Shown one piece after another: positions 16,680 to 21,071 of a DNA stretch of 33,574 nt. Under the pieces are notes generated by a model. The model saw only the letters and a program-made list of their open reading frames with translations, did not search any database and had not been told where the DNA came from. Each line of letters opens with the position of its first letter. Positions within the stretch are counted from its first letter, which is position 1. Origin of the DNA: a bacterium (GTDB lineage Bacteria; Sysuimicrobiota; Sysuimicrobiia; Sysuimicrobiales; Kaftiobacteriaceae); NCBI GenBank assembly GCA_044869795.1, contig JBIOXT010000191.1, positions 1-33,574 on the forward strand. The letters are read 5' to 3'. The position numbers were made by a program, and so were the translations under genes.

Positions 16680-19600
16680 ATGGCGACGGACCAAACGACG
16701 ACCCCCTACACCGCAGAGCAGATTCAGGTCCTCGAAGGGCTGGAAGGCGTCCGCAAGCGCCCCGCCATGTACATCGGCAGCACCGGCCCCGACGGGCTGC
16801 ACCACCTGCTGTTCGAGGTGGTCGACAACTCGGTCGATGAGGCGCTGGCCGGCCGCTGCGACGAGATCGACGTCGTCCTCCACAAGGACGGCAGCGCGTC
16901 GGTCAGCGACGACGGCGCCGGCATCCCCGTCGATACCGTGCCGAAGGTCGGCAAGCCGGCGGTCGAGGTCGTGCTGACGACGCTGCACGCCGGCGGAAAG
17001 TTCGGCGGCGGGGGCTACAAAATCTCCGGGGGCCTGCACGGGGTCGGCGTGTCTGTGGTCAACGCCCTGTCGGAGTGGCTGGAAGTCGAGGTCCAGCGCG
17101 ACGGCAAGAAGTTCAAGCAGCGCTTCGCGCGCGGCAAGAAGTCCACCGGACTGCAGTCCGTCGGCTCCTCGCGGCGGACCGGTACCCGCGTCACCTTCAA
17201 GCCCGACGCCCAGGTGATGACCGCGTCCGAGTTCGATTTCGAGACCATCAGCAAGCGTCTGGAAGACATCGCCTATCTGAACAAAGGGCTGACGATCCGC
17301 CTGCGCGACGAGCGCACCGATCAAGAGACCGTCTTCAAACATGCCGGCGGGATCGCCGAGCTGGTTCAGGCGATCAACCGCACGAAGAGTAAGATCTCGG
17401 CGGTGATCAGCACCGCGAAGGATCGCGACGGAACCGAAGTCGACGTTGCCCTGCAGTACAACGATTCGTACCTCGAGCACACGCTCACCTACGTCAACAC
17501 GATTCCAACCACCGAAGGTGGGACGCACCTTGCGGGATTCCGCACGGCGCTGACGCGTGCGATCAACGACTACGCGCGGCGCGCCGGCATGCTCAAGAAC
17601 GGCGACATCACGCTGACCGGCGACGACGTGCGCGAGGGCCTGACGGCGGTGCTCAGCCTGAAGCTGCCGGAGCCGCAGTTCGAGGGACAGACCAAGACAA
17701 AACTCGGCAACACCGAAGTGAAGGGGCTCGTCGAGTCTGTCGTCGGTGACTGGCTGCAGGAATGGCTGGAGACGCACCCCGGCGACGCGAAGCGGATTGT
17801 CAACAAGGCGATCACCGCGGCGCGGGCGCGCGAAGCCGCCAAGCAGGCGCGGGACCTCGTACGGCGCAAGACCGCCCTCGACGTCTCCCCGCTGCCGGGG
17901 AAACTCGCCGACTGCACGGAGACCGATCCCGAGCACAGCGAGTTCTTCATCGTCGAGGGGCCATCGGCGGGCGGATCGGCCAAGCAGGGGCGGGACCGCC
18001 AGTTCCAGGCCATCCTGCCGATCCAGGGCAAGATCCTCAACGTCGAAAAGGCGCGCGAGGACAAGATGGTCGGCCACGAAGAGATCCGGGCGATCATTAC
18101 CGCGCTGGGCACGGGGTTCGGGGACAAGTTCGATTTCGACGCCCGGCGCTACGACCGGATCATCATCATGTGCGACGCCGACGTCGACGGCAACCACATC
18201 CGCACGCTGCTTTTGACGTTCTTTTATCGCTACATGCGGCCGCTCATCGAGCACGGGAAGGTCTATATCGCCCAGCCGCCGCTGTATCTGGTGAAGAACG
18301 GCAAGGAACGGCGCTACGCGTTCTCGGACGAGGAACGTCAGGTGCTCACCAAGGAGATCGAGCGCAAAGGCGGCAGGCCCGACGTGCAGCGCTATAAGGG
18401 GTTGGGCGAGATGAACCCCGAGCAGCTGTGGGAGACGACGATGGATCCCGCCACGCGGACGCTGCTGCGCGTTGAAATCGAGGACGCGAAGACTGCGGAT
18501 GTGATCTTCACGACGCTGATGGGCGAGGAAGTGGAGCCGCGGCGGGAGTTTATCGTGAAGTATGCGAGGGAAGTGCGGAACTTGGATATCTGGTGCCCGC
18601 GTGCGATTTTTAGAGGTGTGAACATGGCCTTAGCAGACGAATCCCGCATCATCCCCCAACCGATCGAACAGGAGATGCGGACCTCGTATCTCGATTACGC
18701 GATGTCCGTCATCGTCAGCCGCGCGCTCCCCGACGTCCGCGACGGGCTGAAGCCGGTCCAGCGGCGGATTTTGTACGCGATGCTCGAGGCGGGGCTGCGG
18801 CCGGACCGCGCGCATCGCAAGAGCGCCGCGGTCGTCGGCGACGTCATGAAGAAGTACCATCCGCACGGCGACGCGCCGATCTATGAGGCGCTGGTGCGCA
18901 TGGCGCAGGACTGGTCCTTCCGGTATCCGCTCGTCGACGGGCAAGGGAACTTCGGCAGTATCGATGGGGACCCACCGGCCGCAATGCGCTACTCCGAGGC
19001 ACGGTTGACACCGATCGCGATGGAGCTCCTCCTCGACATCGACAAAGAGACCGTCGACCTTGTTCCCAACTACGACGAGTATGAGAAAGAGCCGGTCGTC
19101 CTGCCCGCCAAGCTGCCGAACCTGCTGATGAACGGCGCGTCCGGCATCGCGGTGGGCATGGCCAGCAACATTCCGCCGCACAATCTCGGCGAGCTCGTCG
19201 ACGGTCTCGTGGCGCTGGTCGACGACAAGGACACCGACGCCGAAGCCCTGATGAAGATCGTCAAGGGCCCGGACTTTCCCACGGGCGGCATCATCCTCGG
19301 CCGCGATGGAATCAAGGCCGCCTATGCCACCGGGCGCGGCGGGATCACGGTGCGCGGAAAAGCCACCATTGAGGAAATGCGCGGCGGTCGCACGGCGATC
19401 ATTGTCACGGAGATTCCCTTCCAGGTGAACAAGGCGTCGCTCGTCGAGCGGATCGCCGAACTGGTGCGCAACAGGAAGATGAACGGGCTCAGCGACCTGC
19501 GCGATGAGTCGGACCGCCGGGGCATGCGCATCGTCATCGAACTGCGTCGCGACGCGAACCCGCAGATCGTCCTCAACCAGCTCTTCAAGCACACCCAGCT

Positions 19601-21071
19601 CCAGACGACCTTCGGCGCGAACATGCTGTCGCTGGTCGACGGGGTGCCGCGCACGCTGGGCCTGAAGGACATGCTCGTTCACTACCTCAATCACCGGCGC
19701 AACGTGGTGATCCGGCGGACCAAGTTCGAGCTGGCCCGCGCCGAAGACCGCGCGCACATCCTGGAAGGCTACAAGATCGCCCTCAAGTTCCTGGATGAGG
19801 TCATTGCGTTGATCCGAAAGTCCAAAGACACGGCCGCGGCCCGGAGCGGATTGATGAAACGGTTCAAACTGAGCGAGCGCCAGGCCGACGCAATCCTCGA
19901 GCTGCAACTGCGGCGTCTTTCCCAGCTGGAGCGCGAGAAGATCGACGACGAGTACAAGCAGCTGGTCAAGGACATCGCCCGGTTCAAGGAGATGCTGCGC
20001 GATGCCACGTCGCCCCGGCCGAAGCTGATCATGGCTTCGGTGCGCAGCGAGCTGCTGGAGATGAAGGGAAAGTACGGCGATCCACGGCGGACCAAGATCA
20101 CCGGCAAGGAAGCGGAAGAGTTCGAGGCCGAGGACCTCATCCCCGACGCCGACGTGGTGATCAGTCTGACCCACAACAACTACATCAAGCGGCAGCCCCT
20201 GGAGACCTACCACCTGCAGCGGCGGGGGACGCGCGGCGTACTCGGCATGGGGACCAAAGAGGAAGACTTCCTGCAGCAGGTGCTGACGACGACCAACCAC
20301 GCGTTCCTCTTGTTCTTCACCGACCGCGGCAAGGTGTACCGCATGAAGGCCCACGAGGTGCCGGAAGCCGGACGCACCGCGCGCGGCACCGCCGTCGTCA
20401 ACCTGCTGGCCATGGCCCAGGGCGAGCGCGTGAACGCGATCATCGCGCTGCGCTCGTTCGAGGACGAAGGCAGCGTGTTCATGGTCACCCGCCGCGGGGT
20501 CGTCAAGCGCACCGGCCTCATGGAGTTCATCAACGCCAAGCGCGCCGGCATCTTCGCCATCACCCTCGATCGCGATGACGCGCTGGTCGACGTGAAGATG
20601 ATGACCAAGGACTCCGAGATCGTCCTGGCGACGAAGCTGGGCAAAGCGTTGCGCTTCAAGGCCGGGCAGGTGCGCGAGATGGGGCGCGGCGCTCGCGGCG
20701 TCGCCGGCATCCGGGTGCGCGGGGACGACGAGGTGGTCGGCGTCGCCGACGCCCGGGAAGGCGCAACGCTGCTGTCGGTGACCGACCTCGGCTACGGCAA
20801 GCGCACGCCGCTGGGACACTACCCGGTCAAGTCCCGCGGCGGGATGGGTGTGATCAACATCCGGGTCAACAAGAAGACAGGGCCGGTCGTCAGCGTGCGT
20901 GCCGTCGACGACGATGACGAAATCCTCGTCGTGACCACCAGCGGCGTGTTCAACCGGATGGCCGCGGGACAGATCTCCGTGCACGGGCGTCAGGCGCAGG
21001 GCGTGCGCGTGCAGAAACTCGAGCCCAACGGCCGGATCGCCGCAGTGGCGCGGATTCCGGCCAAGGACTAG
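16680..21071 (+). CDS. gyrB-gyrA: Continuous gyrB-gyrA ORF (DNA gyrase B module 16680-18590, 11-codon linker, gyrase A module 18624-21071)
   Basis: This is a single 1463-codon ORF. The GyrB module has the GHKL ATPase ([29 protein letters not shown]), the Toprim ([32 protein letters not shown]) and the C-terminal ...REVRNLDI. The next codon is TGG rather than a stop. The GyrA module has [24 protein letters not shown] and a catalytic Tyr context ([10 protein letters not shown]). Confidence 0.9.
18624..21071 (+). CDS. gyrA: DNA gyrase subunit A (internal-start reading of the same frame)
   Basis: The ATG at 18624 ([29 protein letters not shown]...) is preceded by GAGG with a 7-nt spacer, so a separate 815-aa GyrA could be initiated here regardless of the upstream read-through. 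Confidence 0.6.

Follow-up and report, generated by a model that had tools for sequence, protein, structure and literature searches.

An apparent one-base stop loss places gyrB and gyrA in a single reading frame on a bacterial metagenome contig

Introduction

Canonical bacterial DNA gyrase is built from two separate polypeptides, GyrB and GyrA, assembled as A2B2. The closest described single-chain forms were engineered by joining the C terminus of GyrB to the N terminus of GyrA through a short linker. For example, a T. thermophilus GyrBA fusion with a GDL linker supercoils like the wild type (PMC3763546), the B. subtilis (GyrBA)2 enzyme is described as 'virtually identical' to A2B2, and an E. 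coli GAP-linked GyrBA fusion is in routine use (both PMC5137430). Many PDB entries are also GyrB-GyrA chimeras, such as the linkerless S. aureus GyrB27-A56 core fusions 2XCS and 2XCO. For a natural cellular gyrase fusion, our literature search, whose coverage was incomplete and which is no proof of absence, returned engineered examples only. Here we describe a locus from an environmental genome of the Kaftiobacteriaceae (assembly GCA_044869795.1, contig JBIOXT010000191.1, positions 1 to 33,574, hereafter the window) in which gyrB and gyrA form one uninterrupted open reading frame (ORF). We ask how this state arose and how far it can be trusted.

Results

A single reading frame spans gyrB and gyrA

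The ORF list gives a single frame of 1463 codons on the plus strand at 16680..21071, encoding GyrB, a linker and GyrA, as the initial annotation had stated. The GyrB module (16680..18590, plus strand, 637 codons) runs from its ATG to the family-typical C terminus ...REVRNLDI, with CGG AAC TTG GAT ATC coding for RNLDI and the last codon at 18588-18590. The GyrB profiles likewise end at residue 637. At 18591-18593 (plus strand), where the gyrB stop is expected, the sequence reads TGG (Trp). It continues with TGC CCG CGT GCG ATT TTT AGA GGT GTG AAC and reaches an ATG at 18624, so that a linker of 11 codons (TGG plus ten more; 33 nt, 18591..18623, plus strand) separates the 637-aa GyrB from the 815-aa GyrA. 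The GyrA module (18624..21071, plus strand) has 815 codons and a TAG stop at 21069-21071. That its start lies at 18624 agrees with the relatives, whose GyrA proteins all begin MALxDESRI. As the sequence stands no stop lies between the two modules, which departs from the two separate polypeptides of canonical gyrase. The predicted masses are 162.3 kDa for the fusion, 70.5 kDa for GyrB alone and 90.5 kDa for GyrA alone.

At the 16 closest loci, whose local GyrB/GyrA identity to the window is mostly 77-95%, a stop follows directly after ...NLDI (GAC/GAT ATC), exactly at the position of the window's TGG. This codon is TAG in L081-L083, L085, L086, L089-L091 and L163, TAA in L084, L161 (GCA_036505015.1) and L162, and TGA in L087, L088, L164 and L165. 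The GyrB proteins of the relatives all end in NLDI, and the best whole-protein identities, 95.1% for GyrB and 92.1% for GyrA, are gapless. A single A-to-G change suffices to produce the TGG, as had been proposed from the sequence: L086, L091 and L163 read TAG and L164/L165 read TGA (L161 has TAA). As it stands in the contig, the locus is a private one-base stop loss that turns an ordinary gyrB-gyrA operon into one reading frame.

A junction scan found no terminator-like site between gyrB and gyrA. Upstream of gyrB lies a weak sigma-70-like promoter match (16503..16531, plus strand; TTGACG, 17 nt, TAAACT). It is the sole match in 16100-21300 and is not significant alone, with 1 found compared to 0.8 expected in shuffled sequences.

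The linker is a translated intergenic spacer

The linker has a GC content of 54.5%, compared to 61-66% in its flanks. Minor codons of this genome make up five of the 11: CGT (8% of Arg), ATT (13% of Ile), TTT (22% of Phe), AGA (2% of Arg) and GGT (10% of Gly). It contains a run of five T (18607..18611, plus strand) and a Shine-Dalgarno-like GAGGTG (18613..18618, plus strand), which stands 5-7 nt ahead of the gyrA ATG (7 nt for GAGG). Both the ribosome-binding site of gyrA and its ATG are thus intact. The lower GC content, the rare ATT TTT AGA and the position of GAGG all agree with the initial annotation.

The spacers of the relatives range from 9 to 97 nt and are unrelated in sequence, save for the GGAG/GAGG motif ahead of the gyrA ATG. 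In all close relatives the distance of this GGAG or GAGG from the ATG equals that of GAGGTG in the window. The closest spacer, found in L086 and L163, reads TAGCACCCGAGAGGTCCGAGCC, compared to TGGTGCCCG...AGAGGTGTGAAC in the window. Here TAG CACCCG AGAGGTCCGAGCC lines up with TGG TGCCCG CGTGCGATTTTT AGAGGTGTGAAC, and the two spacers differ by the TAG-to-TGG change plus 11 nt in length. Because of its rare codons, low GC content and retained Shine-Dalgarno motif, we identify the linker as the former gyrB-gyrA intergenic spacer, which by chance is in frame and stop-free. This reading, too, had been put forward in the initial annotation.

An evolved fusion would be expected to have an adapted linker and no internal start, whereas this one keeps minor codons, GAGGTG and the ATG. 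The lack of any sign of adaptation after the fusion implies that the event is either very recent or not real. By its sequence, the fusion would be very young, and it is private to this population.

The other two frames meet stops before the gyrA ATG (TAG at 18611-18613 and TGA at 18619-18621). Accordingly, a one-base change in the length of the T5 run would restore two separate genes, and an error of ±1 in this run would leave a GyrB 7-9 residues longer. The gapless gyrase alignments and a comparison of 15 genes with L161 show no signs of homopolymer errors. An AlphaFold2 model of the 740-aa core is poor overall (predicted local distance difference test, pLDDT, 66; predicted template modelling score, pTM, 0.40). 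The linker is among its lowest-confidence blocks (pLDDT 25-38), which in a model of this quality is weak evidence.

Both halves are intact gyrase subunits

The GyrB half has the complete Pfam set HATPase_c, DNA_gyraseB, Toprim and DNA_gyraseB_C over residues 37-625. From residue 681 the GyrA half carries DNA_topoisoIV (PF00521) and six DNA_gyraseA_C repeats (PF03989). The GyrB profiles NF004189 and TIGR01059 cover residues 4-637 (profile positions 4-641 of 641) and 10-637 (profile positions 1-639 of 639), respectively, and the NCBIfam GyrA profiles start at residue 657 of the fusion. The catalytic-Tyr motif of GyrA is matched at 18978-19007 (plus strand). The C-terminal domain (CTD) has six beta-pinwheel blades and a GyrA-box-like QRRGTRG at 20217-20237 (plus strand; residues 1180-1186 of the fusion). 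The GyrA-box consensus is QRRGGKG. The QRRGTRG form is conserved in the close relatives compared, with the variant QKRGTRG in L162.

To distinguish gyrase from topoisomerase IV we used the equivalog cut-offs of NCBI (NCBIfam). The GyrB half scores 949.9 against TIGR01059 (cut-off 882.4) and stays below the ParE cut-offs (parE_Gpos 781, cut-off 899.95; parE_Gneg 623.5, cut-off 723.35). The GyrA half scores 1176.7 against NF004043 (cut-off 902) and 1143.7 against TIGR01063 (cut-off 877), and stays below the ParC cut-offs (parC_Gpos 699.4, cut-off 813.25; parC_Gneg 565, cut-off 628.9). Since the gyrase cut-offs are passed, those of topoisomerase IV are missed and the neighbourhood is that of the replication origin oriC, the sequence assigns the locus as the organism's housekeeping gyrase, neither a topoisomerase IV nor a mobile-element enzyme. 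A topoisomerase IV or a phage-derived single-chain topoisomerase II is ruled out by these cut-offs together with the oriC synteny.

All 637 GyrB and all 815 GyrA residues align to the relatives without gaps, with GyrB 93-95% identical. The ratio of nonsynonymous to synonymous substitution rates (dN/dS) of both halves is 0.05-0.15 at dS 0.57-0.75 against close relatives. Private substitutions number 1 in GyrB and 10 in GyrA, are mostly conservative and are not in excess. The low dN/dS, the absence of gaps and the few private substitutions indicate that both halves are under strong purifying selection, and they rule out a pseudogene or a decaying gyrase. From the intact motifs and the activity of the engineered fusions, the fusion would be predicted to carry out ATP-dependent negative supercoiling.

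The TOPRIM motif of the window (17955-17975, GyrB residues 426-432) reads EGPSAGG, where the usual form is EG[D/E]SAGG. The Pro is common to several close relatives (L162, L163, L091, L164 and L081), and others have Glu. We take this position to correspond to D426 of E. coli GyrB, a quinolone-resistance site. Inteins occur in gyrases of related bacteria: many close GyrA relatives (P0404, P0410, P0412, P0419 and others) are 1254 aa long with intein domains, and several Limnochordia-labelled GyrB proteins (among P0002-P0013) also carry inteins. Both gyrB and gyrA of the window are intein-free.

Relatives keep the two subunits separate

Several lines of evidence weigh against a fusion that is established in the organism. 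We compared 115 gyrB-gyrA junctions, comprising 79 loci from species-representative genomes, 31 from metagenome contigs and 5 reached via the closest GyrA proteins. All carry TAA, TAG or TGA, and the fusion is shared by none. Among the 120 nearest GyrA proteins (72-92% identity) in a collection of 5.8 billion proteins, none has GyrB domains; they are either 815-aa GyrA or intein-bearing GyrA. The window protein belongs to a 90%-identity cluster of 22 members; of the 15 listed, it alone is fused. Proteins of the same cluster are separate GyrB (637 or 642 aa, all ending in NLDI) and GyrA (815 aa), 92-95% identical to those of the window. The closest relatives that bear a name are metagenome-assembled genomes, with the labels 'bacterium', Armatimonadota and 'Bacillati bacterium ANGP1'. 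With genome, metagenome and protein searches yielding separate genes only, a lineage-wide fusion is ruled out, and the idea of an evolved one is unsupported (0/115 junctions, 0/120 nearest GyrA).

The relatives also point to a cost. Among adjacent junctions, the spacer is in frame and stop-free in 12 of 31 when the less biased locus sets are taken and in 43 of 105 across all sets, and with such a spacer any stop-to-sense change would fuse the genes. Around 40% of the junctions are therefore one change away from fusing, yet not one of the 115 is fused. Close relatives have swapped stop types and whole spacers (dS 0.57-0.75), with the stop kept at the same codon. The stop is therefore under selection that keeps the subunits separate; fusing them is not neutral and probably carries at least a mild cost. 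A GyrBA.GyrA (BA.A) heterodimer is inactive unless free GyrB is supplied (PMC5137430; PMC11164529). The retained gyrA ribosome-binding site would consequently be a liability in a real fusion. By analogy with these constructs, a plausible selective cost lies in stoichiometry and subunit exchange, with free GyrA possible and free GyrB not.

Finally, the case comes down to one base of a metagenome assembly, and the contigs assembled from single runs are 1-2 kb long, suggesting modest coverage. In the organism itself the fusion is best treated as a candidate.

Weighing an error against a real stop loss

It is a serious possibility, though one that falls short of an even bet, that the true codon is TAG or TGA. 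The G at 18592 (or 18593) would then stem from a faulty consensus or base call, or from a minority read variant promoted in assembly, and GyrB and GyrA would be made separately. A single transition creates the fusion, the fused state is unique while every relative examined keeps its stop, and the linker is unadapted with the Shine-Dalgarno motif and ATG intact. Moreover the window is an entire metagenome contig of 33,574 nt, and single runs containing the same population assembled into short pieces. In a large protein catalogue, most ORFs across the gyrB-gyrA junction are visible error products, that is, short out-of-frame singletons. The window ORF resembles these (for example P0001, P0121, P0122, P0151 and P0239) in running from the GyrB C-terminal region into GyrA as a singleton. 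However, they are fragments of 180-545 aa or frameshifted, with the NLDI end lost, whereas the window keeps every residue over all 1463 codons and differs by a clean substitution. Another joined ORF is found in the raw data of the clade: P0491, a 930-aa catalogue protein 82% identical to the window GyrA, has GyrA domains and Peptidase_M50 and would represent GyrA read through into the downstream M50 gene.

The quality of the contig argues against an error. Fifteen genes are colinear with those of L161 and free of frameshifts, which rules out an indel-ridden assembly, and gyrB and gyrA show no surplus of odd substitutions. The hallmarks of a frameshift or indel artefact are absent: the GyrB C terminus is retained, there are no out-of-frame stretches or truncation, and the neighbouring genes are unbroken. 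Two Logan single-run contigs of the same population, L166 (SRR30692723, 99.56% identical to the window) and L167 (SRR30692729, 99.9%), together reproduce 3.1 kb of the window independently. They were found via look-ups of the remA-like and M50 proteins, and both end short of the gyrB-gyrA junction. Exact-protein look-ups of the fusion, GyrA alone, DnaN, RecF and the metallopeptidase gave no match. L166 equals window 14467-16507 except for 9 mismatches within 200 nt of recF (15189-15390), of which 7 are synonymous. At 6 of these 7 sites the window has A/T-ending rare codons and L166 has G/C-ending ones. This patch looks like genuine strain variation, either a recombination tract or co-assembled strain variation, and the contig otherwise looks reliable. 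The population has real single-nucleotide variation. By a rough estimate that was not computed, a genuine private single-nucleotide polymorphism is a priori at least as likely as a consensus error at one given base.

The same heterogeneity bears on a further explanation, in which the stop loss is real but is a transient, deleterious minority allele captured by the assembler rather than the normal state. The recF differences to L166 indicate that strains are mixed in this population, and all relatives show purifying selection on the stop. Nonetheless the strain differences lie in recF and both Logan contigs stop short of the junction, and we consider this explanation improbable.

The sequence also offers the geometry for a regulated dual output from a real fused frame. 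On the U5 run (AUU UUU AGA), the P-site tRNA-Phe could slip back one base while the rare AGA waits, so that UAG (18611-18613) enters the A site and GyrB is released. AGA is the rarest Arg codon here, and a supply of free GyrB would restore the stoichiometry that free GyrA upsets. In known bacterial frameshift sites such as dnaX and prfB, a Shine-Dalgarno-like element lies upstream of the slip site, whereas in the window it lies downstream. The arrangement has no conserved counterpart in any relative, and RNA structure in the junction is nothing unusual (z = +0.86), so that a stimulatory structure is lacking. A pure sequence coincidence within 33 nt of formerly intergenic DNA accounts for it, and a programmed slip is very unlikely.

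Taken together, we put the probability that the stop-loss fusion is real and predominant in the population at roughly 0.5. The stricter version, in which the G at 18592 is real and fixed and the sole gyrase is an obligate single-chain (BA)2 enzyme, is proposed tentatively on the strength of the contig sequence.

A model for the fused gyrase

In the scenario we propose, an ancestral TAG or TGA became TGG by one nucleotide change in an ordinary gyrB-gyrA operon beside oriC. As the 30-nt spacer behind the TGG is in frame and stop-free, ribosomes would read gyrB through the spacer into gyrA. If the base is real, a 162-kDa chain of GyrB, 11 aa and GyrA would be made. Two such chains would probably pair up as a (BA)2 gyrase that is the counterpart of the normal A2B2 enzyme, the tether linking termini that are already side by side, as in the laboratory GyrBA fusions. 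With the gyrA ribosome-binding site intact, some free GyrA may also be made by internal initiation. It would enter BA.A and A2 complexes, which would be dead ends in the absence of free GyrB.

Comparison with engineered and natural single-chain enzymes

The initial annotation had suggested that gyrase could be made here as a fused polypeptide, and biochemically this is plausible given that engineered GyrBA fusions match A2B2 in activity (PMC3763546, PMC5137430). The locus shares with them the joining of the GyrB C terminus to the GyrA N terminus by a short linker, within a bacterial gyrase sequence, and the junction region aligns end to end with 2xco_A (E = 1e-274). Laboratory-made fusions have 0-3 designed linker residues, whereas the window comes from an environmental genome, has an 11-aa translated spacer and keeps the ribosome-binding site and the ATG from which free GyrA could start internally. 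The laboratory fusions are known to dimerise to (BA)2 and to supercoil like A2B2, while the window fusion is known from its sequence.

The halves are closest to the canonical A2B2 gyrases of the relatives (L161, L163, L086 and L091). They are 88-95% identical, equal in length (637 and 815 aa) and alike in synteny, and share the GyrA-box-like motif and the six CTD blades. The differences are the codon at the end of gyrB, a stop in the relatives and TGG in the window, and the spacer (9-97 nt compared to 33 nt).

Natural single-chain topoisomerases of the B-then-A type comprise the phage family phrog_28877, a group of catalogue proteins around P0241 and eukaryotic Top2. With these the window protein shares the order ATPase, transducer, TOPRIM, WHD/tower, coiled coil and (CTD). 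Its likeness to eukaryotic topoisomerase II, pointed out in the initial annotation, holds for domain order and for nothing beyond it. The window protein matches phrog_28877 ('DNA topoisomerase II', a 1441-position profile) in one stretch over residues 10-1352. In contrast to the window, however, phrog_28877 and the P0241 group are established fusions with long evolved linkers and a weak or absent GyrA CTD signal. They are 36-41% identical to the window protein and are not a chromosomal, oriC-linked gyrase. The window encodes a bona fide GyrB and GyrA by the equivalog models, and its fusion is unconserved. On this sequence evidence it is neither an evolved fusion nor a member of the established single-chain families.

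A scan of 1.84 billion proteins returned five AT-rich natural single-chain proteins of the GyrB-GyrA type (P0241, P0243, P0381, P0337 and P0298; 1391-1799 aa), which come from Logan, JGI and ENA contigs and all match phrog_28877. P0243, P0381 and P0337 match it in one stretch over most of their length. A tblastn search of P0241 against phage genomes gave two-piece matches only, in unannotated records.

Genomic neighbourhood

By its gene content, the window is the chromosomal origin region, with an ordinary oriC neighbourhood. The minus strand carries rpmH, rnpA, yidD, yidC, jag, rsmG, parA and parB. The plus strand carries dnaA, dnaN, an S4-like gene, recF, dciA, a remA-like gene and gyrB-gyrA, followed beyond gyrA by an M50 peptidase, GNAT, AlaX and a shikimate-pathway cluster. 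This synteny is kept in the relatives. The cumulative GC skew has its minimum at ~12-13 kb (within window 11000-14000), near dnaA, and gene orientation flips from minus to plus near 10.6-10.9 kb. Both are consistent with an oriC beside dnaA.

Three neighbouring genes deserve mention. Directly 5′ of dnaA lies an unusual neighbour (10906-11697, plus strand), a gene for a 263-aa protein that combines a GHKL ATPase domain (HATPase_c) with a weak match to a TrmB-like helix-turn-helix. A small PhageMetallopep-domain protein (23419-23832, plus strand) is 97.6% identical to its counterpart in L161 and exceeds gyrase (88-95%) and every other gene of the neighbourhood in conservation. At 26563-28191 (plus strand) a 542-aa fusion of shikimate kinase and 3-dehydroquinate synthase (aroK-aroB) has a counterpart of equal product length and domains in L161. 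This natural fusion is fixed, unlike the private one of gyrB and gyrA that the contig also carries.

Discussion

The comparative data carry a message of their own, namely that selection keeps the gyrase subunits separate. Should the TGG be an error, nothing biological remains, and the locus serves only as a warning for annotation pipelines.

If the base is real, the organism would be a natural experiment: a free-living bacterium running its essential gyrase as one chain, a state so far shown for laboratory constructs alone. With the G fixed, this would be, as far as our searches show, the first cellular gyrase in nature to consist of a single polypeptide. The sequence would then capture a moment just after the step from split to fused, a step presumed to underlie the eukaryotic and viral Top2 enzymes, with the old ribosome-binding site and the spacer codons still visible. 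It would thereby date the first step in the fusion of a type IIA topoisomerase as a stop loss across an in-frame spacer, preceding any adaptation of the linker or of the ribosome-binding site.

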